This document shows, piece by piece, positions 2,720 through 27,724 of a stretch of 64,000 bases of DNA. The DNA is from Chloroflexota bacterium. GTDB lineage: Bacteria > Chloroflexota > UBA11872. The notes beneath the pieces were generated by a model, which was given only the letters and a program-made list of their open reading frames with translations, was not told the DNA's origin and did no database searches. The stretch spans positions 310,501 through 374,500 of the forward strand of contig OY764080.1 in the NCBI GenBank assembly GCA_963667925.1, written 5' to 3'. How positions within the stretch are numbered: the stretch's first letter is position 1; each line of letters opens with the position of its first letter. The position numbers were made by a program, and so were the translations under genes.

Positions 2720-4396
2720 ATGGTTACCAGAAGACAGATGCTTCGCATGGGCGGCACCGCCGCCCTGGGGATTTCCGGCGCGGTAGCGCTGGCGGCCTGC
2801 GGCGAGACGCAAATCGTCACCAAGGAAGTTCCCGTCGAGACGGTCGTTGTTAAAGAGGTTCCAGTCGAGAAGATCGTGACTCAGCAGGTCGAGCGAATCG
2901 TGACCCAAGAGGTCGTGAGCGTCGTCCGCGAGGAAGTTCCGGTCGAGAAGGTCGTCGAGGTTGAGAAGGTCGTCGAGAAGGTCGTGACTCAGGAAGTTGA
3001 GAAGGTCGTCGAAGTCGAGAAGGTCGTCGAGGTCGAGAAGATCGTCGAAGTCGAAGCCATGGTGCAGCGACCGCGCGCGGTCATCCGCCTGGCCAACGAC
3101 CACTCGTCCGGCGCTCGCGGCGCGGCGATGAACTGGGCGCTGGAAAAGTTTGCCCAGCAGTTCCCGCATATCGCCATCAAGTTTGAGCCGCAGGACCATT
3201 TGTACATTGATTCGTTCTCGATCAACATCGCCGCCGGCGCGCAGCCCGAGCTGGCGCTGCTGGACGGCGGGTTCTTCAACACCTGGGTGCACCGCGGCGG
3301 CTTCGCCCGCATCGACGGCGCGCTGAGCAAGCATCCGGACTGGGACCCCACCAAGTGGTACTCCCCGCCGGACGAAATGACGGTCGGTCAGTTCGACGAC
3401 GACCGCGCCGCGCGCCCGGCACCGCACACCACGGGCTACGGCGGGGTCGCCCAGTTTGGGATGCCCTACCAGGGCAACATCAACGGGAAGATCTACAACT
3501 TCACGCTGCTGGAGGAGTTGGGGATTCCCATGCCGGTTGAGGGCTCCTACCACCTGGAGCGTGAGGCCTGGGACCTGTTCATGCAGGCCAGCGACCCCGA
3601 GGCGGGTACCTACGGCCTGCGAATGTCCGGAAACGCTTGGATCGTCTGGGGCAGTTGGGCAAGGGCCTTGCAGAACAGCGGAAATCACATGTACCGAGCG
3701 CCCGACCAGTTGCACTGGGACATCTTCAACGATGGCGGCGACCGCGGCTTTGCATACGCGGTCAACAGCATATTGGAAGGTGTAGCTCCGCCGTTCGACC
3801 AGGTCCAGGCAGTCGCCGGCGAGTTCGGCGATCCGTTCTCGGCCGGCAAGATGGCCACCTACTGGACCGGCGGCGGCGTCGGCTCGACCATCCCGCGGAT
3901 CAAGGACCGCTTCTCCTGGGGTCTTGGACCCATCGAGGAAGGCGACCGCGGAGGCGCACCGCACCACTTCACGAACCAGGGTCAGTACTGCACCGCCACG
4001 GCCGAACGGAATGGCCTGGTGGAGGAGTGCACCGAGACTCTGCTGTTCTTCGCGGGTCCGCAGGTCCAGGGCCGCATCGCCATCGACCGCGGCTCCCTGC
4101 CAATGCTCAAGACGGTGGTCGAGTCCGACGAGTTCAAGGCCGGGCCGCCCGATAACCACGGGTACTACAAGACCTGGATGGACAAGACGGACCACCACCA
4201 CTGGCAGAACGGCCACCCGAACTGGTGGGAGTGGTACGAGTCCTTCCGTGCGGCCGACCCGCCCTTCATCGGCGATATGTCGATCGAAGAGGGGATGCAG
4301 CACATCATCAACACCTCCGACCGTGTTCTCGAAAACACCAAGGAGGAGTACGACTCCTGGAAGGCCTGGATCGACGCGCTGCCGCCGTCGGCCTAA
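2720..4396 (+). CDS. ABC transporter extracellular solute-binding lipoprotein (sugar-binding family 1-like)
   Basis: Twin-Arg-like 'TRRQML' leader, lipobox 'LAAC', VEKVV linker repeats, SBP-type body ('FSAGKMATYW', 'FFAGPQVQ'). Confidence 0.8.
   Translation: MVTRRQMLRMGGTAALGISGAVALAACGETQIVTKEVPVETVVVKEVPVEKIVTQQVERIVTQEVVSVVREEVPVEKVVEVEKVVEKVVTQEVEKVVEVEKVVEVEKIVEVEAMVQRPRAVIRLANDHSSGARGAAMNWALEKFAQQFPHIAIKFEPQDHLYIDSFSINIAAGAQPELALLDGGFFNTWVHRGGFARIDGALSKHPDWDPTKWYSPPDEMTVGQFDDDRAARPAPHTTGYGGVAQFGMPYQGNINGKIYNFTLLEELGIPMPVEGSYHLEREAWDLFMQASDPEAGTYGLRMSGNAWIVWGSWARALQNSGNHMYRAPDQLHWDIFNDGGDRGFAYAVNSILEGVAPPFDQVQAVAGEFGDPFSAGKMATYWTGGGVGSTIPRIKDRFSWGLGPIEEGDRGGAPHHFTNQGQYCTATAERNGLVEECTETLLFFAGPQVQGRIAIDRGSLPMLKTVVESDEFKAGPPDNHGYYKTWMDKTDHHHWQNGHPNWWEWYESFRAADPPFIGDMSIEEGMQHIINTSDRVLENTKEEYDSWKAWIDALPPSA
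2813..3060 (+). repeat. Low-complexity coding repeat (V-E-K-V-V / V-T-x-E-V-P units)
   Basis: Repeated GTCGAGAAGGTCGTC-like units encoding an E/K/V-rich linker. Confidence 0.85.
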
Positions 4397-4429
4397 GCCT
4401 CAGACACTCGTCCGATTTAGAGGGCGAGA

Positions 4430-4467
4430 ACCCGTCGGCCCGGCATACGCCGGGCCGACGGGTCGTT
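4430..4467 (+). terminator. Intrinsic terminator-like hairpin
   Basis: 15-bp perfect stem ACCCGTCGGCCCGGC-ATAC-GCCGGGCCGACGGGT then CGTTT, 33 nt after the SBP stop. Confidence 0.7.
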
Positions 4468-4605
4468 TAAGACCCTGACCGGCGACCCACAGGACCACGG
4501 TCTGTCATAACGCTGCGATAGGCTCCGCTTGCTGACGCCGCCCGCGGCGCGTTGGGCCGGCTGCTAGCCGCTGCGTCCAGGACGACTATTGGGGAGCGAA
4601 CCGGC

Positions 4606-17277: not shown

Positions 17278-18432
17278 TCAGGCTCGGCGCAGGGCCTGGC
17301 CTCGTCGGTAGGTCGCCACACGCCAGAGCCACTCGGCCGGACCGAAGCGGAACCGTTGCATCCAGGCCTTCGACCACCACAGTTGCAGCGTCCACACGGC
17401 CAGGACGAACAGCAGCAGGCCCGCGCGGTTCACGGGGGCGGCGTCCAGGATTAGCGTGAGGACCAGCACGCCCAGCACGGTTTGCGTCAGGTAGTTGGTC
17501 AGGGCCATGCGGCCGACGGCTCGGAAGCGCTGTGTGAGGGCGCTGTCCAGGCCCCGGTTCCAGAGGATGATCAGGCTCATGTAACCCAGTGAAGCCGGAA
17601 TCGTGCCGAGGGTATTGGGGACCTGGCCGATGAACGCCACGTCTCGGGAATAGTCGCCCAGCGCCGTGATCAGGGCGCCGAGCGCGGCGAGGGGCAGGCC
17701 GATGCCTATTCCAATGCCGGCCGTGAGCCGGTACGTCCTGGCCGACCAGGCGCCCTGCATGAAGCCCAGGCGGTAGAGCCCGGCGCCCATCAGGATCAGG
17801 CCCAGGCCGCGCAGGAAATAGCCGAGGACTGTGAGCCCCAGCACGGCGCCGTTGAGTCCGGCGAAGTCGGCCTCGTCTCCCCGGGAAGGAGCCCACAGGC
17901 CGCTGAGCGGCACGTCGGTTGCGTTCGTGACGGCCTGATTCACGAGGAGAACGGGAACGGAAAGCAGGAAGACGCACGCGCCGACCCCGATCAGCCACGG
18001 ACCCGGGAGCTTTCGCAAGGCGATGAGGAACAGGGCCGACACGGCATAGACGATCAGCACGTCGCCGTCCCACAGCAGGCTGTGCAGGATGCCGATGCCC
18101 AGCAGCAACCCATTCCGCCAGAGATTCAGCAGCACGGGACGACCGCCCCTGGCCTCGGCCCGCTCGATGAACAGCAGGATCCCGGCGCCGAAAAGCAGCG
18201 AGAAGATCCCCATGAACTTCTGGTCGACCAGGATCTCGCCGCCAATGCCCACCACCCAGTCCAACCAGGACTCCGAACCGCCCGCCCTGAGGTTGAGGTA
18301 GGGCGTGCGTCCGAACTTGAAGTGCACCACGTTCATCAGCAGGATCCCCAGCACGGCCACCCCGCGCACCAGGTCCAGGCTGGTGATGCGCGCAGATTCG
18401 GCGACAGGCGCGGCAATTGCATCCCGTTTCAC
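17278..18432 (-). CDS. DUF418 (YeiB-like) membrane protein
   Basis: 'RITSLDLVRGVAVLGIL', 'KFMGIFSLLFG', 'GRMALTNYLTQ', 'FGPAEWLWR'. Confidence 0.9.
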   Translation of the reverse strand: MKRDAIAAPVAESARITSLDLVRGVAVLGILLMNVVHFKFGRTPYLNLRAGGSESWLDWVVGIGGEILVDQKFMGIFSLLFGAGILLFIERAEARGGRPVLLNLWRNGLLLGIGILHSLLWDGDVLIVYAVSALFLIALRKLPGPWLIGVGACVFLLSVPVLLVNQAVTNATDVPLSGLWAPSRGDEADFAGLNGAVLGLTVLGYFLRGLGLILMGAGLYRLGFMQGAWSARTYRLTAGIGIGIGLPLAALGALITALGDYSRDVAFIGQVPNTLGTIPASLGYMSLIILWNRGLDSALTQRFRAVGRMALTNYLTQTVLGVLVLTLILDAAPVNRAGLLLFVLAVWTLQLWWSKAWMQRFRFGPAEWLWRVATYRRGQALRRA

Positions 18433-18500: not shown

Positions 18501-18925
18501 TCTTCACCCTCTCCAGGCGACCGTTGCAAAACAGTCCCGCGTCCTTAGAGGTGCGGTCGCTCTTGCTCCCTCGCCCCGTGGGAGAGGGTTGGACCCTGCC
18601 CCGGACGCGATCCGGGGGTGAGAGTCTTCCGCGCAACCGCCCCTGGGTTGCGCAAGGGTCTCTCTCCAAGGAGACCTTTGCGAATTGCCCCTCGCCGTCG
18701 AAGGCGCGGCGGCTCCTGCTCCCTCTCCTGGGGGCTGCCAATTGTGTGGGGCGTCAAGTTTTTCAGGGTCGCGCTGCTCCTTACCCTCTCCTAGGGGAGA
18801 GGCAGATTCGGGCGTCTTCGGCCGAAATCGGTGAGGGGTCCTCCGGTCGAGGTCTCACACCCACCCCGTTCGTGGTGAGCCGGTCTGGAGTCCCCGGAAA
18901 GCCTGCCCTGAGCTTGTCGAAGGGA
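18501..18925. repeat. Degenerate REP-like palindromes upstream of the DUF559 gene
   Basis: TCTTCACCCTCTCC at 18501, CCCTCGCCCCGTGGGAGAGGG at ~18568, CCCTCTCC at ~18721, a near-complete unit at ~18784-18840, CCTGAGCTTGTCGAAGG at ~18907. Confidence 0.7.
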
Positions 18926-19052
18926 CCGTGTCGAACCACACACCTCGGATGAAGCACCCGACCCCAACCCATCCTCACCCTTCTGCCGCCGCCCACGCCT
19001 TGCCTCAGCGTGATCGCTCCGCCGGTCGACCACCCCCAATACACTAGTTCCC

Positions 19053-19547
19053 ATGTCCAAACCTGACCTTCCCTTCGAGGAGACCCCGAAGCGCCTCATC
19101 AACTTGGCGAGGGCTTTTCGAAGGCGCCGAACAAGCGCCGAAGGTGTGCTCTGGGGACTGGTGCGCAGTCGCCGCATGGGCGTTAAATTCCGACGCCAGC
19201 ACCCCATCGAGCCCTTCGTCCTCGACTTCTATTGCCATGAACTGCGCCTGGCCGTTGAGCTAGACGGCAGCCAGCACACCGCTCCGGCTCAACGCATCGG
19301 TGACGACCGCCGCACGGCCGCCCTGGCAGCTCGAGGAATCCAGGTGCTGCGCTTCTCGAACCTCGAAATCCTTCAGGAAACACAAGCCGTCGCCGAGACC
19401 CTCTGGCAAGCCTGCCAGCAGCGCCTCACAACGACTGACCGAAGACCACGGCAAGGCAGCCGCGGCTCTTCGCCCTGTCCAGGTGGAGAGACAGAGCCTG
19501 GCCCCAGCCTGCCGAGGGTTTCCGCCGTCCGCCACGGGAATCCGTGA
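19053..19547 (+). CDS. DUF559 (Vsr-like very-short-patch-repair superfamily) endonuclease
   Basis: 'TSAEGVLW', 'KFRRQHPI', 'VLDFYC', 'AVELDGSQH', 'VLRFSN'; the last ~27 codons are repeat-derived. Confidence 0.9.
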   Translation: MSKPDLPFEETPKRLINLARAFRRRRTSAEGVLWGLVRSRRMGVKFRRQHPIEPFVLDFYCHELRLAVELDGSQHTAPAQRIGDDRRTAALAARGIQVLRFSNLEILQETQAVAETLWQACQQRLTTTDRRPRQGSRGSSPCPGGETEPGPSLPRVSAVRHGNP

Positions 19548-20173
19548 GCGGTCTTCCGGGCAATCGCTACCCGAGGTCTTCCGATCCTCAGAGGCGCGTC
19601 CGTTCTTCACCCTCTCCAAGGGGAGAGGCAGAACCTGCCCTGAGCTTGTCGAAGGATTCCGCCGTCTTCGGCGGAAATCGGTGAGGGGTCTGCCGCGCAC
19701 CCAACCCTCGAGCGATCTGGGTCCGTTGACGAGGCAGGTCGGCTCTTCACCCTCTCCGAGGGGAGAGGCAGGTTCGGCCGGCCCCGGCCGAAACCGGTGA
19801 GGGGTCTGCCGCGCACCCAAGCCTTGAGCGATCAAGGTTCGTTGGCGAGGCAGGTCGGCTCTTCACCCTCTCCGAGGGGAGAGGCAGATTCGGGCGTCTT
19901 CGGCCGAAATCGGTGAGGGGTCTGCCGCGCAACCAACCCTCGAGCGATCTAGGTCCGTTGACGAGACGATTCGGCTCTTCACCCTCTCCAAGGGGAGAGG
20001 CAGAACCTGTCCTGAGCTTGCCGAAGGATTCCGCCGTCTTCGGCCGAAACCGGTGAGCAACTGTGTTCGGCGTCAACCTGCTTGAGGAGTCGCCGATCTT
20101 CACCCTCTCCGAGGGGAGAGGCAGATTCGGGCGTCTTCGGCCGAAATCGGTGAGGGGTCTGCCGCGCACCCAA
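19467..20173 (+). repeat. Tandem array of six REP-like palindromic units (116-140 bp period)
   Basis: Unit starts TCTTCACCCTCTCC at 19467 (degenerate), 19604, 19744, 19860, 19976, 20097; core ...GGGGAGAGGCAGATTCGGGCGTCTTCGGCCGAAATCGGTGAGGGGTCTGCC. Confidence 0.9.
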
Positions 20174-20256: not shown

Positions 20257-20697
20257 TTATTGCCTTCCACCCAGCGGCACATCCCGACCTTCGTCCAGAT
20301 CCAGCCGGTCGAACTGGCGGGAGAGGTCGGTGCGGTGGGACTGGCCGATGTCGGCCAGGAACTGGCGGTAGCGCTCGCGCGCGGTGTCGTCCTGCGGGGT
20401 GATGGTCATCATGCGGCGGTTGAAGGCCATGATCTCGGTGGCGGAGCGCGGACGCATCCGCGCCTTGATCCAGGCCCAGACCGCCTCGTCGCTGTCGCGC
20501 GCGGCCACGGCGTCCACGAAGTCCTGCGGCTCGACCCCCAGGAACTCCAGCAGCATCCCGGAAAAGAAGGTGCGCGAAATGTAGTCCCCCAGCTTCCCGG
20601 CAATCTCCGCCCGAACCTTGTCGATTGCCCGCGGCAAAAACACGATCCCCTGCATCGACTCGTACGGACTGCGCGGTATCCCGTTTACCAGATCCAT
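20257..20697 (-). CDS. DUF5069 domain protein
   Basis: 'PRSPY', 'LPRAIDKVRA', 'GKLGDY', 'LEFLGV', 'FDRLDLDE'; GGAG/GAGG RBS upstream of ATG 20697. Confidence 0.75.
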   Translation of the reverse strand: MDLVNGIPRSPYESMQGIVFLPRAIDKVRAEIAGKLGDYISRTFFSGMLLEFLGVEPQDFVDAVAARDSDEAVWAWIKARMRPRSATEIMAFNRRMMTITPQDDTARERYRQFLADIGQSHRTDLSRQFDRLDLDEGRDVPLGGRQ

Positions 20698-21444
20698 TGT
20701 GTACCTCTCTCCAACGGCGACCTTTGAATAATGCGCCCTGAGCAGCGCCAAGGGGCGGTGGCCGCCCCTCGACAGAGTAGCGAGGGGTGAGGCCGCATGG
20801 GACGGCGTCCCCAAGTCCGGCACCCGACGCACCGTGCTGTCGGTCGCGGAGACGACGAATCACCCGCTCTACGGCGTCATCACCATATGCAAGTTGCGGC
20901 GACTGGATCACGGGCGGCTCCGATTTCAAAACCAGGGCTCCAAGACCTCCAACTCATCGGCACCCTCGACGTTCGCCGCTAATCCACCCTCTCCGGCAAC
21001 ACCGAACAGGTCGATCTCTGATATCCACACCGATCTCGAAGCTGCAATTAGACACTGTCTGTCAACCGTCCAGGATGTCGCCTCCCGCACGCGAACCTCT
21101 CTCCACCTCGAGGTTCGTCACGCATTGCAAATTCATCCACGAAGTGAGACTGACGGTTCCACGCGATTACGACGATGCTAAAGAGTATTAGCGCCCTAGC
21201 CCCGATCCGACATCAACTACATCGTCACAGCGCCCTACAGTGAACGAAGGTGCATGTCGCATGAGCAGAGCTACACTGCCATGCTCCGCGAAGCTACAAT
21301 TGGCCTCAAAGTGCACTCACCACTCCGCCAACTCTTTCGTCAGCTACAGCCAGCGACTCTATCTGTGGGCGCCGATCCCGAGAAACGACGAAGGTCTACT
21401 TTGCCAGTTGTCAGCCAACCTAGGATACGGTAGCCTCTTCCATC

Positions 21445-21580
21445 GGTGCCCACGGCGAGGATTAATTATCTCTGCTGATCCAGCTTTGATCATCGCTCAC
21501 GTGTGCTTTACGCGCTACCATTCATCAGCGCGCCGTTTTTCGCGCCTGTTCGCGGAAAGCTAAATCCCGTCGTGGGCACC
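21445..21580 (+). ncRNA. Candidate retron msr-msd ncRNA
   Basis: Terminal inverted repeats GGTGCCCACG (21445-54) / CGTGGGCACC (21571-80), extendable to ~18 bp, enclose a small hairpin (TGATC/GATCA, 21476-92) and a long imperfect hairpin (21505-21560); ends 47 nt before the retron RT start. Confidence 0.7.
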
Positions 21581-21627
21581 AGATAACATCACCGTCCAAC
21601 AAGATAGATTCATGAATTTCGATCTAA

Positions 21628-23181
21628 ATGTCCATTAGCGTCAGTTATACCTTTCAGCAGTCAAGAGAACAGTTCTCAAATCTCAAACACCCTAAGGACG
21701 TCGCAGCAATGCTCGATGTGTCCTACGATGACTTAGTGTATTGGCTATACAGAACTCCTGAGCGGCGACGCTATCGAACCCTCACTATCCCGAAGAAGCT
21801 CGGCGGACTCCGTGAAATCGAAGCGCCAAATGATAGTATCAAGATTCTGCAACAAAAGCTCAACTATATACTTAAGTCGATTTACGTACCTAAGCCAAGC
21901 GTGCACGGCTTTGCAGTACGCAAGAGCGTAAAGACCAATGCGAGAGTCCATGCTAATAAGCAGTGGGTCTTCAACGTTGACTTGAAAGACTTCTTTCATG
22001 AAATCAACTTCGGTCGTGTGCGAGGGATGTTCATGGCGAAGCCGTATGATCTTCCGCCTAAAGTCGCAACAGTTCTGGCCCACATGTGCTGTCACCAGGG
22101 CCGCCTTCCTCAGGGTGCACCGACGTCACCTATTGTGAGCAATATGCTGTGTGGACGTATGGATAGCCAACTTCAGACTCTAGCCAAGAACAATCATTCC
22201 ACATACACCCGATATGCGGACGATATTACATTCTCAACGACGAGGAAGAGATTTCCAGCAGACATCGCTTATCTTGATAGTCTGGGACGTATACGACCAG
22301 GTGTTGTACTCCGTGAAGTCATTAACGACAACGGATTCCGCATCAATAGAAGGAAGGTCTGGCTAGCGGGCAAACACAATAGGCAGATCGTGACGGGTGT
22401 TGTAGTCAACGTGTTTCCCAATGTCCCACGGCGTTTCACTAATCAGATTCGCGCCATGCTGCATGCTTGGAAGCAGCACGGCTTGGCCGCTGCACAGACG
22501 GAATGGGAGAAGAAGTATCACATTCATCATGGTGCGCCCTGGCGTCGACCTCCGCAGTTTCCTGAGGTTTTGCTGGGTAAGATAGAATATTTGGGAATGA
22601 TAAGGGGCCTAGACTGTTCTGTGTATTTGAGATTTCTCGATCAATTGAATGCACTCGATGCGACGCTTGCAACGAAGCGTGGAACACCTATGCGCCTGCT
22701 TAGATCGTACTATTATAAGCTTGCTAAGTCGAGGTCTATAGATCCGCAGGAGCGAGGGCGACGTTATGAGAAAGTAGTTGCTCAACTGTTCGGAATCTCA
22801 GGAATTGAAGTTTCGGAAGCATTTCGCCGAAACAAAGGAGGTGAGCAGATTGATGGAGCTTTTAGTCTGGACAATCGACACTATTTGGTTGAGTGTAAAT
22901 GGCAAGAGAGGCTGACAATGCAGTCCGATATTGATTCGCTAAGTGGGAAAATCGGACGCTCCGGTGATCAGACAATGGGAGTGCTGATTTCGGTGAACGG
23001 ATGGTCTGGACATGTCGAGGGTCTAATGAAGCAGAGTTCGGCGAAACGAATCTTCCTAGCGAATGGACGAGACATTGAGGCAATACTGTCTGGCGAGATA
23101 GATCTTAAGGAGTTGTTTCGCACCAAGGAGCGAGCGCTCAGCATCCAAGGAGAGCCATTCTTAAGTGTCGAAGACATCTGA
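21628..23181 (+). CDS. Retron-type reverse transcriptase fused to a C-terminal Mrr-like PD-(D/E)xK endonuclease
   Basis: Retron region X 'NARVH' (NAxxH), 'DLKDFF', 'LPQGAPTSP', 'YADD', region Y 'VTG'; residues ~372-517 carry 'ERGRRYE...EQIDG...LVECKW'; GC about 47% in a sampled line. Confidence 0.9.
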   Translation: MSISVSYTFQQSREQFSNLKHPKDVAAMLDVSYDDLVYWLYRTPERRRYRTLTIPKKLGGLREIEAPNDSIKILQQKLNYILKSIYVPKPSVHGFAVRKSVKTNARVHANKQWVFNVDLKDFFHEINFGRVRGMFMAKPYDLPPKVATVLAHMCCHQGRLPQGAPTSPIVSNMLCGRMDSQLQTLAKNNHSTYTRYADDITFSTTRKRFPADIAYLDSLGRIRPGVVLREVINDNGFRINRRKVWLAGKHNRQIVTGVVVNVFPNVPRRFTNQIRAMLHAWKQHGLAAAQTEWEKKYHIHHGAPWRRPPQFPEVLLGKIEYLGMIRGLDCSVYLRFLDQLNALDATLATKRGTPMRLLRSYYYKLAKSRSIDPQERGRRYEKVVAQLFGISGIEVSEAFRRNKGGEQIDGAFSLDNRHYLVECKWQERLTMQSDIDSLSGKIGRSGDQTMGVLISVNGWSGHVEGLMKQSSAKRIFLANGRDIEAILSGEIDLKELFRTKERALSIQGEPFLSVEDI

Positions 23182-23478
23182 TAGCGCTAATAGAAAGCGC
23201 TTGACGGCTACGTGAAAGCTCCCGCGAGCAAGTCGGCCGCGCTGCAGTTCCAATATTCTTGAAGAGGAGTTGCTGAGTTCGCGACATACCCGACAGCCGC
23301 TGATCTCAGTAGATGAAATGATCGTCTAAGGCCAGCGGACCCTGGTTGCACATACGTGGCGGTCACCGAATTCGAGGGCATTTAGGACGCCGATGCGAGG
23401 CAACTTCATTCACTTGGTGAAGCAGCGAGCTGAGCAGTGGCGCGGATTGTTAGGCAGATGTAGGTTGTTCCATTTCTC

Positions 23479-27657: not shown

Positions 27658-27724
27658 GGCAGACCCCTCACCGATTTCGGCCGAAGACGCCCGAATCTGC
27701 CTCTCCCCTCGGAGAGGGTGAAGA
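27658..27724 (-). repeat. Dispersed inverted copy of the 19.6-20.2 kb REP-like unit
   Basis: Reverse complement of 20097-20163. Confidence 0.9.

Follow-up and report, generated by a model that had tools for sequence, protein, structure and literature searches.

The closest described relatives of the repeats analyzed here belong to the BoxC/PIT/TM_ECO class, which was noticed as BoxC in 1992 (Bergler 1992), rediscovered as PIT in 2000 (Hoyne & Maher 2000, 2002) and again as TM_ECO in 2015 (Holder et al., PMC4666352). The latter study, which covered Proteobacteria, counted 3610 copies in 262 genomes. TM_ECO formed a triplex in vitro and its sites were unusually unstable, and the authors report no mobility function or associated protein (PMC4666352). 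A second comparable system is that of REP/REPIN and RAYT, in which copies of a hairpin repeat border a nuclease gene of low copy number and many others are scattered without the gene (Nunvar 2010; Bertels & Rainey 2011; Ton-Hoang 2012, PMC3333891). A third one consists of I-Bth0305I (PMC3239194) and the Vsr-like enzymes of "fractured genes" (PMC2677866), which are bona fide or proposed homing endonucleases.

The window, that is, the whole analyzed stretch of 64,000 nt of Chloroflexota DNA, carries at 19053..19547 (+) a gene for a 164-aa DUF559 protein, assigned through Pfam and its predicted fold as a Vsr-like PD-(D/E)XK nuclease. DUF559 is a very large family and most of its members have no assigned role. 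The Pfam match (PF04480; E 5.6e-31, 107.1 bits against a gathering score of 20.6) places the domain at aa 15–121 and covers profile positions 3–108 of 109. The Vsr-like fold, proposed in the preliminary description, was recovered by the AF2 model built with a 63-sequence MSA (pLDDT 84; a single-sequence AlphaFold model with pLDDT 47 was not used), which matched 3hrl (1.8e-6), I-Bth0305I (3r3p, 9.5e-5) and Vsr (1vsr, 1.7e-2) in Foldseek. Residues invariant among the homologues are kept in the window protein (E30, W34, R48, Q49, D58, E69, D71, G72, H75, R87, and R100). Residues D58, E69, D71, H75, D84, and R87, all present here and invariant or nearly so in sets of 81 and 63 homologues, are by analogy the putative active site. 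The protein is 33% identical to NGO0050 of Neisseria (PDB 3hrl; E 3e-16). It is not a YcjD orthologue, because its score against PRK09767 (E. coli YcjD, NCBIfam; E 7e-22, 78 bits) is far under the equivalog cut-off of 218. An exact look-up of the DUF559 and DUF5069 proteins of the window returned no recorded entry, and DUF559 was not among the known defence components in PADLOC.

The gene lies in a field of repeats which had been noticed before and proved real, as the unit starts of the nhmmer profile coincided with the coordinates first given for them. In detail, the profile found eight units and one fragment in the window, with seven of the eight units around the DUF559 gene. The core TCACCCTCTCCNNGGGGAGAGGCAG is present seven times (+ strand at 18781, 19607, 19747, 19863, 19979, and 20100; − strand at 27697), as opposed to zero copies in shuffled window sequence. 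Upstream of the gene, a 5′ fragment of the unit, TTCTTCACCCTCTCCAGG, is located at 18501..18517 (+; partial nhmmer match with E 2.5, and sequence inspection). It is followed at 18560..18640 (+) by a degenerate unit missed by nhmmer and read by eye, consisting of CCCTCGCCCC-gt-GGGAGAGGG, an CCCCGGAcgcgaTCCGGGG hairpin, GTGAGAG and the tail GTCTTCCGCGCAACC, with a module order that matches the units of the related loci L198/L199. The upstream palindromes had been described as degenerate, which is right for these but not for all, since an intact unit in the orientation of the gene is found at 18778..18844 (+; E 2.7e-22). Its order is outer arm TTACC, hairpin 1 (CCTCTCC/GGAGAGG), hairpin 2, and outer arm GGTGAGGGG. 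Sequence inspection also revealed an unrelated nested small repeat at 18866..18940 (+), gttcgtggtgagcc...ctgccctgagcttgtcgaaggg...gtgtcgaaccac, whose ctgccctgagcttgtcgaagg block is the same as a 24-nt insert in the units starting at 19604 and 19976, a correction to the earlier unit description.

Six units follow on the same strand. Unit 1 (19467..19557, +; nhmmer E 2.1e-6) is degenerate and overlaps the 3′ end of the ORF; unit 2 (19604..19695, +; E 1.1e-20) is a long form, in which the insert separates hairpins 1 and 2; unit 3 (19744..19810, +; E 2.3e-20) has the hairpin 2 variant GGTTCGGCCGG/CCGGCCGAAACC, with compensatory changes according to pair counts; and unit 5 (19976..20058, +; E 1e-17) is again of the long form and its 3′ arm is degenerate. 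Unit 4 (19860..19926, +) is by exact match identical to unit 6 (20097..20163, +; E 6.9e-24) and to a solo, gene-less unit at 27658..27724 (−), which is situated in a different intergenic spacer, bounded by two + strand genes. The exact inverted 67-nt copy reported 7.5 kb away is therefore genuine, the reverse complement of 27658–27724 being equal to both 19860–19926 and 20097–20163. Tandem repeat analysis with TRF gave a 116-nt period across 19655–20004. In Logan contigs, depth over the repeats was inflated 5- to 25-fold, a figure not taken as copy number, and the apparent joints are repeat copies elsewhere, uninformative on excision.

As claimed previously, unit 1 supplies the stop codon of the gene: the TGA at 19545–19547 is inside its degenerate GGTGAG arm. 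Since close homologues have only 133 aa instead of 164, about 30 C-terminal residues of the window protein are encoded by the repeat.

The spacer between the DUF5069 and DUF418 genes, where field and gene reside, has 1824 nt in the window and 57 nt in a close relative (locus L324). The field with its gene is an insertion into the spacer that is 57 nt long in that relative. No DUF559 gene was found near the DUF418 orthologue in any of 80 relatives, and with L324 empty the site shows the presence/absence polymorphism at an otherwise conserved position that is asked of homing endonucleases. Relatives of the window protein with 70–84% identity occupy different gene contexts, each again embedded in the same units. 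Among relatives, the DUF5069–DUF418 spacer is hypervariable and holds other repeats. A low-GC defence island is located 1.5 kb from the DUF559 locus.

In genomes related to that of the window, the full unit measures approximately 115 nt when its conserved tail, GGTCTTCCGGGCA.CCA, is counted, which accounts for the 116-nt period above. Comparison of 111 units showed that hairpin 1 and the outer arms are invariant in sequence and that hairpin 2 is maintained by compensatory changes, while the outer stem has a nearly fixed T.G apposition (columns 3–62, 104 of 110 units). In related sponge Chloroflexota MAGs, at least 212 units are distributed in 116 loci beside ordinary genes, none of which has a DUF559 gene. 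The view that the repeat field is the gene's own does not hold against these numbers.

The window unit is a Chloroflexota lineage variant of the known BoxC/PIT/TM_ECO class (PMC4666352). Both have three arms, one C-rich and two G-rich, of which the first G-rich arm is complementary to the C-rich one and the second mirrors the first with T allowed opposite A, and both are multi-copy and intergenic, in both orientations and also in inverted pairs. The published pattern, CCCTCNCCC N3-6 GGGNGAGGG N3 GGGNGAGGG, fits the flanks of DUF559 homologues from other phyla and locus L402 but not the window units, whose arms are ACCCTCTCC / GGGGAGAGG / GGTGAGGGG, with a second loop of 27–54 nt where the pattern has 3 nt, the loop being hairpin 2 alone or together with the insert. 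In the window lineage, this loop is a structured hairpin of 25–29 nt; further differences from the class are an upstream arm, TTCACC, able to pair with the last G-arm, a conserved tail of about 40 nt, and the 116-nt tandem arrays. Mirror symmetry is present in the window as well (GGGGAGAGG against reversed GGGGAGTGG, with T allowed opposite A). Judging from the sequence, the arms have the symmetry of an intrastrand purine-motif triplex, which the long second loop may or may not allow.

The enrichment of similar hairpins beside DUF559 genes across genomes, set beforehand as a test of the proposed association, was strong, extended over many phyla and appeared in two independent samples. The homologues were collected by scans seeded on the conserved peptide VELDG(S/G)QH, so that the sample represents one part of the DUF559 family. 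Exact CCTCTCC-N-GGAGAGG hairpins were within 300 bp of a DUF559 gene in 78 out of 101 cases (590 kb searched). Any pure Y/R 7-bp hairpin within 260 nt was found at 74 of the 80 genome DUF559 loci as opposed to 44 of 813 background windows, and the replication on metagenome contigs gave 58/69 loci versus 9/317 windows (OR 180, p 1e-47). The background is thus 3–5% and the enrichment 17- to 30-fold. The 160 DUF559 loci correspond to 107 distinct flank contexts, 92 of which are hairpin-positive. The DUF559 family and the repeat class are physically linked in about 85–90% of the sampled loci, in many phyla.

These numbers bear directly on the explanation that the repeats and a horizontally acquired orphan gene gathered by coincidence in one permissive, hypervariable spacer. 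The variable DUF5069–DUF418 spacer with its other repeats, the nearby low-GC island and the richness of related genomes in the repeat would agree with it, but the enrichment of 17- to 30-fold, seen independently in two samples, the positive result in 92 of 107 independent contexts, and the fixed distances and symmetric arrangement of the hairpins bring the coincidence reading close to refuted.

Around the homologues, hairpins are positioned 10–90 nt before the gene start and 13–60 nt past the gene end. If the arms are designated as A (C-rich), A′ (G-rich, which would pair with A) and B′ (a second G-rich arm mirroring A′), with B as an upstream arm, the usual module reads A-loop-A′-B′ / gene / B-A-loop-A′, with inverted ends and a median of 456 bp. 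The pair of left and right loops is reverse-complementary in 13 loci, in 3 it is direct and in 40 ambiguous; between the inner arm and the hairpin arm, the mirror relation is better in 71 cases and the direct one in 11. The window and Anaerolineales have flanking units in direct rather than inverted arrangement, so that the sampled loci do not share a single architecture. Gene-less forms of the motif comprise solo units, inward doublets with a core of 27–140 nt, and arrays. They are far commoner than those with a gene, as only 6 of 153 motif copies adjoin DUF559, which is still the sole recurrent ORF family next to these 153 motifs. Mean protein identity was 0.497 for pairs sharing a hairpin arm versus 0.496 for pairs not sharing one. 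In a tree-ordered listing, the correspondence of proteins and arms was suggestive but mixed, and one protein cluster holds mixed arms.

The arrangement resembles REP/REPIN-RAYT in its low-copy nuclease gene and dispersed gene-less repeats, in the inverted doublets among the latter, and in the lack of target-site duplication, abutting duplications being at chance level among 88 two-sided elements. On the contrary, the enzyme is a Vsr-like PD-(D/E)XK nuclease instead of a HUH Y1 transposase, and the repeats are homopurine/homopyrimidine mirror motifs without the GTAG/CGTC head, which is absent from the unit consensus. A tblastn search with one query, E. coli RayT, found no match in the window and matches only in the related loci L027 and L125. 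The RAYTs of these loci each carry GTAG-REPs unlike the window units, and the related genomes' GTAG-REP is absent from the window. A RAYT flanked by the window's repeats, which would have spoken against a separate system, was not encountered in this one-query search: a RAYT-like gene in one related Chloroflexota genome has a different REP, of the classical GTAG-headed type, both on its flanks and within it, and a bona fide RAYT with REPs of its own coexists in genomes related to that of the window. For the same reason, and within the reach of that search of the window and related loci, RAYT was rejected as mobilizer of the window units. The possible non-RAYT, REP-like system that had been suggested is partly upheld, in its link to DUF559 and its distinction from RAYT REPs but not in its private repeat field.

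The units are also similar to the Rfam family whalefall-1 (RF01762), which was described as a non-coding RNA from whale-fall metagenomes only (Weinberg 2010, PMC2864571). Unit 18778..18844 matches the model over positions 1–56 of 56 with 27.8 bits (E 1e-4), and scores of 18–28 bits stay below the gathering score of 37. Element order is the same and sequence nearly identical (CUCUCC-UUGG-GGAGAG, ACAGA, a second variable hairpin, and GGGUGAGG), but the window repeat is a DNA repeat in both orientations and tied to a nuclease gene. At the gathering threshold, Rfam gave no relevant match in 18 homologue loci.

This full-length, sub-threshold match to a family that its authors rated as RNA (PMC2864571) raises the question of whether the units act as RNA or cis-regulatory elements (whalefall-1-like ncRNA, UTR element, terminator, or insulator) on DUF559 and other transcripts. 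The compensatory changes of hairpin 2, the G.U-compatible positions of the outer stem and the shared orientation of all 19 out of 19 units with the DUF559 gene in four Chloroflexota loci agree with such a role. Nevertheless, we rate it as highly unlikely, given that the flanks are inverted copies in most phyla, so that one flank would be antisense in any transcript, that no T-run is present 3′ of the hairpins, and that the solo inverted copy is placed between two + strand genes. Besides, PIT/TM elements are without promoter or terminator activity and purine-motif triplexes are not formed by RNA (PMC4666352). A terminator or promoter role in particular was rejected on the published PIT negatives and the inverted flanks.

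DUF559 modules are additionally found inside genes. One is inserted within metG and read through in frame, and others are inserted in methylase genes. Insertion inside host genes, presence/absence polymorphism and the catalytic fold (Foldseek 3r3p, E 9.5e-5) are shared with the Vsr-family homing endonucleases. DUF559 differs from them in having no intron, intein or split-intein context and no extra N-terminal DNA-binding domain, in the dispersed repeats at its flanks, and in the in-frame read-through in metG.

Such insertions look selfish and hence speak against a domesticated caretaker, i.e., a nuclease in charge of structure-specific or Vsr-like mismatch repair of the hairpins, triplexes or T:G mismatches of the repeats, whose flanking units autoregulate the gene or reflect its origin. 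The near-fixed T.G apposition of the outer stem, the usually low copy number of the gene per genome, and a Caulobacter DUF559 protein whose Vsr-like behaviour is linked to cytosine methylation (PMC12907096) would suit this function. However, the gene shifts context and differs in presence among close relatives, and no cytosine methyltransferase adjoins it in the window. Altogether, a caretaker seems distinctly improbable.

In E. coli, YcjD (b1289) belongs to the same family as the window protein and, as in the window, its ORF ends in a repeat arm, namely within TCACCCTCTCCC-TGA, with a full TM_ECO downstream. In contrast to the window gene, ycjD has lost the upstream motif and has a fixed site. 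BoxC was first described in the paper on envM (=fabI), which covered the ycjD-side spacer (Bergler 1992). TM_ECO copies amount to 13–30 in the ycjD-positive phylogroups A/B1/C, 1–2 in B2 and 6–15 in D/E/F, a contrast of essentially one clade and thus confounded. The 6–15 copies retained by lineages without ycjD are mostly at conserved loci.

The persistence of motifs in these lineages would be expected if DUF559 were a homing-type parasite, which would exploit pre-existing TM/BoxC motifs, especially the inward doublets, for landing and as homology arms and for nothing else. The repeats themselves would then arise and spread by some other route, for example replication slippage, a different enzyme, or because a host function is selected. 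The vast excess of gene-less over gene-bearing motifs, the short-core inward doublets that resemble possible empty targets and the fold in common with I-Bth0305I point in the same direction. Against this stand the absence of any other recurrent enzyme beside the motifs, the lack of any other mobility function in the survey by Holder et al. (PMC4666352), and a cross-phylum conservation of the motif sequence far beyond structural need, which suggests a conserved protein reader. We consider a mere parasite unlikely, albeit worth keeping in mind.

Our preferred reading, for and against which the chances appear evenly balanced, is that a DUF559/YcjD-type endonuclease gene and its cognate repeat make up a compact module at this locus, either selfish or semi-domesticated, which spreads by nuclease action and homing-like repair. 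B′ would pair with the upstream arm B or sit in the groove as a purine-motif triplex, and in the Chloroflexota variant a structural hairpin is inserted between A′ and B′. The nuclease would recognize the sequence-invariant arms, whether as duplex, hairpin/three-way junction or triplex, and nick or cut there; that the DUF559 protein nicks, cuts or mobilizes the units is pure conjecture. Repair by recombination with another copy would then amount to a homing-like gene conversion, for which the repeats provide the homology arms and by which the gene and gene-less units could be copied to other repeat-bearing or nearby sites. As a nuclease of about 130 aa cannot perform strand transfer alone, the spread is assumed to rely on host repair. 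The same repair may homogenize the copies, from which the three identical 67-nt units of the window would follow, and break-and-repair activity might be the reason why the surroundings of TM_ECO sites are reported to be unstable. Gene-less copies would be non-autonomous derivatives of the module. By analogy, the scheme resembles RAYT/REPIN, though with another enzyme fold and another DNA structure.

In this respect, the DUF559 nuclease is the first protein to become a candidate partner of the BoxC/PIT/TM_ECO repeats. A link of these motifs to DUF559, YcjD or Vsr-like proteins was not found in the literature covered, which leaves out most subscription journals, so an earlier description is possible. 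We tentatively propose, in the belief that it is slightly more probably wrong than right, that the trans-acting partner missing for this class is, in at least 12 phyla, a DUF559/YcjD-type nuclease, and that the two form a second, RAYT-independent repeat–nuclease symbiosis. What the enzyme recognizes would be a homopurine/homopyrimidine hairpin whose third arm is a mirror copy, perhaps folded as an intramolecular triplex or as a three-way junction. It would drive the spread, homogenization and local instability of the repeats, and whalefall-1, classed as RNA in Rfam, would belong to the system as a DNA repeat.

If the link is functional, a second enzyme class would join the REP/RAYT paradigm of nuclease–repeat symbioses, a protein that possibly reads non-B DNA in nature would be at hand, there would be an explanation for the recurrent in-frame insertions into housekeeping genes like metG, and the reading of whalefall-1 would be corrected. 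The BoxC/PIT/TM_ECO class has been described since 1992 without an assigned function, origin or mobility factor, and its link with DUF559 gives both a testable hypothesis, for instance in E. coli K-12, which has one such gene (ycjD) and 23 TM_ECO motifs.

The DUF559 ORF (19053-19547, plus strand; Pfam PF04480, 107 bits, E 5.6e-31, amino acids 15-121) is housed in a 1824-nt spacer of the window, bounded by a DUF418 gene (17278-18432, minus strand) and a DUF5069 gene (20257-20832, minus strand). The repeat core TCACCCTCTCCNNGGGGAGAGGCAG appears seven times in the 64 kb and not once in 100 shuffles, and a profile of the hairpin unit retrieved eight copies and one fragment from the window. In detail, an intact unit lies upstream of the gene (18778), six are found downstream (19467, which is degenerate, 19604, 19744, 19860, 19976 and 20097), and a solo inverted unit (27658-27724) is base-for-base identical to those at 19860 and 20097. 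All coordinates of this field in the preliminary description proved correct, and so did its claim that the first downstream unit supplies the stop codon of the gene: the TGA is inside the degenerate GGTGAG arm of that unit, and the protein has 164 aa against 133 aa in close homologues.

A short element, ctgccctgagcttgtcgaagg, is located at 18866-18940, nested in another small repeat (gttcgtggtgagcc...gtgtcgaaccac), and recurs as a 24-nt insert within two units (19630-19653 and 20003-20026). It belongs to the 'LSLSKG/FDKLR' type, which appears as spurious ORFs in many genomes. Since the insert of some units is also free-standing upstream of the gene, the field is a mosaic, like BIMEs.

The alignment of 111 distinct units, taken from both the window and related genomes, showed practically no sequence variation in hairpin 1 (CCTCTCC/GGAGAGG) and the outer arms (TTCACC/GGTGAGGGG), whereas hairpin 2 is kept by compensatory changes (pair 29-55, AU 72 and GC 30; pair 33-47, GC 65 and CG 36; pair 35-45, CG 51 and GC 25). 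Constraint thus acts on the sequence in one part of the unit and on the structure only in another. The proposed structure has 95.4% of the cells paired; with slid partners the figure is 46-62%. In related genomes the full unit is ~12 nt longer on the left and ~40 nt longer on the right (tail GGTCTTCCGGGCA.CCA), which accounts for the period of 116 nt given by TRF for the window array. In the outer stem, a T opposite a G is nearly fixed at alignment columns 3-62 (104 of 110 units) and is found at columns 5-60 in 20 units; this apposition is a G.U pair in RNA and a T:G mismatch if the DNA strand folds. The T:G mismatch is the substrate of Vsr.

One gene family and one structured repeat class are physically associated, tightly and across many phyla. 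The survey took in 80 loci whose encoded homologues share 40-57% identity with the window protein, drawn from Gamma-, Beta- and Alphaproteobacteria, Verrucomicrobiota, Anaerolineales, Dehalococcoidales, Ignavibacteria, Bacteroidota, Firmicutes, Actinobacteriota and others. These loci amount to 590 kb and contain 101 exact CCTCTCC-N2-8-GGAGAGG hairpins, 78 of which lie within 300 bp of a DUF559 match. The enrichment of hairpins beside DUF559 genes, suggested earlier as a check, is clearly present: a pure pyrimidine/purine 7-bp stem lies within 260 nt of the gene in 74 of the 80 loci, against 44 of 813 background windows from the same loci, and an independent, alignment-seeded sample of metagenome contigs gave 58 of 69 loci (43 two-sided) against 9 of 317 windows (odds ratio 180, p 1e-47). 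Altogether, 160 loci represent 107 distinct flanking-gene contexts, with the hairpin present in 92. When the ORFs within 400 nt of the 153 motif copies from the pattern search described below were clustered de novo, the single recurrent family was that of DUF559-containing ORFs.

The usual module reads A-loop-A'-spacer-B', 40-90 nt, ORF, B-spacer-A-loop-A', where A is a C-rich arm, A' its G-rich partner, B' a second G-rich arm mirroring A', and B an arm able to pair with B'. Its two loops, left and right, are in many cases exact reverse complements; from hairpin to hairpin the module has a median length of 456 bp, and no target-site duplication was found at the modules examined. In Anaerolineales and the lineage of the window, the gene is flanked by complete, directly oriented units instead. 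The three closest placeable relatives of the gene (84, 78 and 70% identity) are located in different gene neighbourhoods, each within arrays of window-type units, and one genome carries two paralogues with motif remnants at each.

Judged by its sequence, the repeat flanking DUF559 is the TM_ECO motif, CCCTCNCCC N3-6 GGGNGAGGG N3 GGGNGAGGG (Holder et al. 2015, PMC4666352), known by the older names BoxC (Bergler 1992) and PIT (Hoyne & Maher 2000). In the DUF559 flanks, the hairpin G-arm matched the inner G-arm better as a mirror in 71 cases and as a direct copy in 11, with 34 ties; the window unit shows the mirror relation too (GGGGAGAGG against reversed GGGGAGTGG), but its second loop is a 27-nt hairpin instead of the 3 nt of TM_ECO. 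The motif was reported in 3610 copies from 262 proteobacterial genomes, with five inverted pairs among the 23 copies of MG1655; it forms a purine-motif triplex in vitro, undetected in vivo, is devoid of promoter or terminator activity, and local instability is raised around its sites (PMC4666352). The words endonuclease, Vsr and DUF559 are absent from the text of that paper. The unit also aligns over the full length of the Rfam model whalefall-1 (18-28 bits, under the gathering score of 37), reported as an ncRNA from whale-fall metagenomes only (PMC2864571). The repeat class and the protein fold are already known, and their pairing appears to be undescribed, judged by the searchable literature.

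The order DUF5069-DUF418-adh_short is kept in the closest relatives. The DUF5069-DUF418 spacer is 57 nt in one of them (L324) and 650-900 nt with unrelated repeats in two others (L323 and L326), and in 80 relatives the DUF418 orthologue has no DUF559 closer than 5 kb. As read from these comparisons, the whole repeat field together with the gene is an insertion, and this spacer is a hot spot where different sequences insert. The homologous spacer of L323 (~4150-4400) and L326 (~4430-4560) houses an array of ~10 iteron-like direct repeats of the TGGACACAT(T/C) type. In several Betaproteobacteria the metG linker contains the whole module in frame, both hairpin ends included, as a single read-through ORF (L118, 2132-4759; L122; L216, 1777-4515) of about 875-913 aa with the MetRS core, a motif-coded linker, DUF559, a second motif-coded linker and the tRNA-binding domain. 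No intein or intron signature was found in these three. Further copies are located in metH, inside its domains or between them, and within DNA-methylase genes.

In E. coli, the DUF559 gene is ycjD (b1289), between sapF and fabI. Its ORF ends (...CGG TCA CCC TCT CCC TGA) inside a degenerate B-A arm, followed, upstream of fabI, by a partial duplicate of its own 3' end (gagacggtgctggagaatattc...) and a complete TM_ECO (K-12, L321, 4300-4420), which suggests a past rearrangement at the module. BoxC made its first appearance in the paper on envM, which we take to be fabI. Phylogroups A, B1 and C have ycjD, as do ST69 and ST182, and eefRABCD takes its place in the other groups (Pugh et al. 2026). 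TM_ECO motifs persist in the lineages without ycjD. The tables of Holder et al. (PMC4666352) give 13-30 copies in the strains that we assign to phylogroups A, B1 and C, 1-2 in B2, 10-11 in O157/O55, 12-15 in 042 and UMN026, and 6-7 in IAI39 and SMS-3-5. The direction agrees with a functional link, in what is essentially one phylogenetic contrast.

The repeat is also widespread apart from the gene. Scanning one genome per species, the core was found at >116 loci, all in Chloroflexota MAGs, many from sponges; DUF418 orthologues place the window organism among sponge-associated Dehalococcoidia/SAR202-like Chloroflexota. In 796 kb of core-bearing Chloroflexota loci there are 212 units and no DUF559 homologue, and the ORFs bracketed by units are ordinary metabolic genes. 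The idea of a field that is the gene's own has therefore to be given up, as the repeat is not private to it. The left-end pattern CCTCTCCC N3-5 GGGAGAGG N3-8 GGGTGAGGG matched at least 120 loci, and the matches listed come from Chloroflexota, Planctomycetota, Acidobacteriota, Cyanobacteria, Verrucomicrobiota, Myxococcota, Actinobacteriota, many Proteobacteria and others. Among them, DUF559 adjoins only 6 of 153 motif copies. The gene-less forms are solo palindromic units (B-A-loop-A'-B'), outward pairs, tandem arrays, and inward doublets with a core of 27-140 nt (L220, L270, L202), which resemble the module minus its gene. A narrower reading, that the DUF559 gene merely parasitises pre-existing repeats, is rather unlikely in our estimate, and a caretaker role, an RNA or coincidence are rated lower still.

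A search with E. coli RayT (tblastn) in the 1.48 Mb of collected sequence gave no match in the window and two elsewhere. In the first, a Chloroflexota MAG (L027, 4283-5500), six copies of GTAGGGGCGGGTCCCCGACCCGCCC, a GTAG-headed REP of the classical kind, surround and split a RAYT-like gene that has HVH and Tyr motifs; this REP is absent from the 64-kb window. This MAG carries DUF559-type units as well, and a single genome thus houses two separate repeat systems. The second match (L125) has a GTAG palindrome of its own. Hence, a RAYT flanked by the repeats of DUF559, the result that was to refute the first proposal, did not turn up in these 1.48 Mb. The DUF559-repeat pairing would work like RAYT/REPIN, yet outside that family.

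The AlphaFold model of the window protein (63-sequence alignment, pLDDT 84) matched in Foldseek the Neisseria DUF559 protein 3hrl, Vsr, the nuclease domains of PvuRts1I and AbaSI, and the catalytic domain of I-Bth0305I, a homing endonuclease (PMC3239194). All family-invariant residues are kept (E30, W34, R48, Q49, D58, E69, D71, G72, H75, R87 and R100; D84 is nearly invariant), and PADLOC recognised no defence protein in it. The same search returned several Tetrahymena and Toxoplasma mitoribosomal proteins (TM about 0.6 on the query); DUF559-like folds are reported in apicomplexan proteins, in agreement with these matches.

The association, the compact module without target duplication, the many gene-less forms, the presence/absence pattern and the invariant arms are expected if the protein reads the arms. 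The nuclease would cleave at the motif, and recombinational repair would then copy modules and units, leading to homing-like spread and homogenisation of the repeats; we give this course of events about an even chance.

Two other features of the window were recorded. The gene at 21628-23181 (plus strand) encodes a protein of 517 aa in which a retron-type reverse transcriptase is joined to a restriction-endonuclease domain (Mrr_cat) at the C-terminus. Its RT part matches the single-gene retron types XI, XII and I-C (E 1e-115 to 1e-133), and the gene lies within a low-GC island (~21000-23300; GC 49-50% against 65% nearby). At 48235-48544, a 99-nt unit is repeated three times in tandem (76-87% matches); on the minus strand it probably encodes a protein repeat of 33 residues, which looks ankyrin-like by eye.
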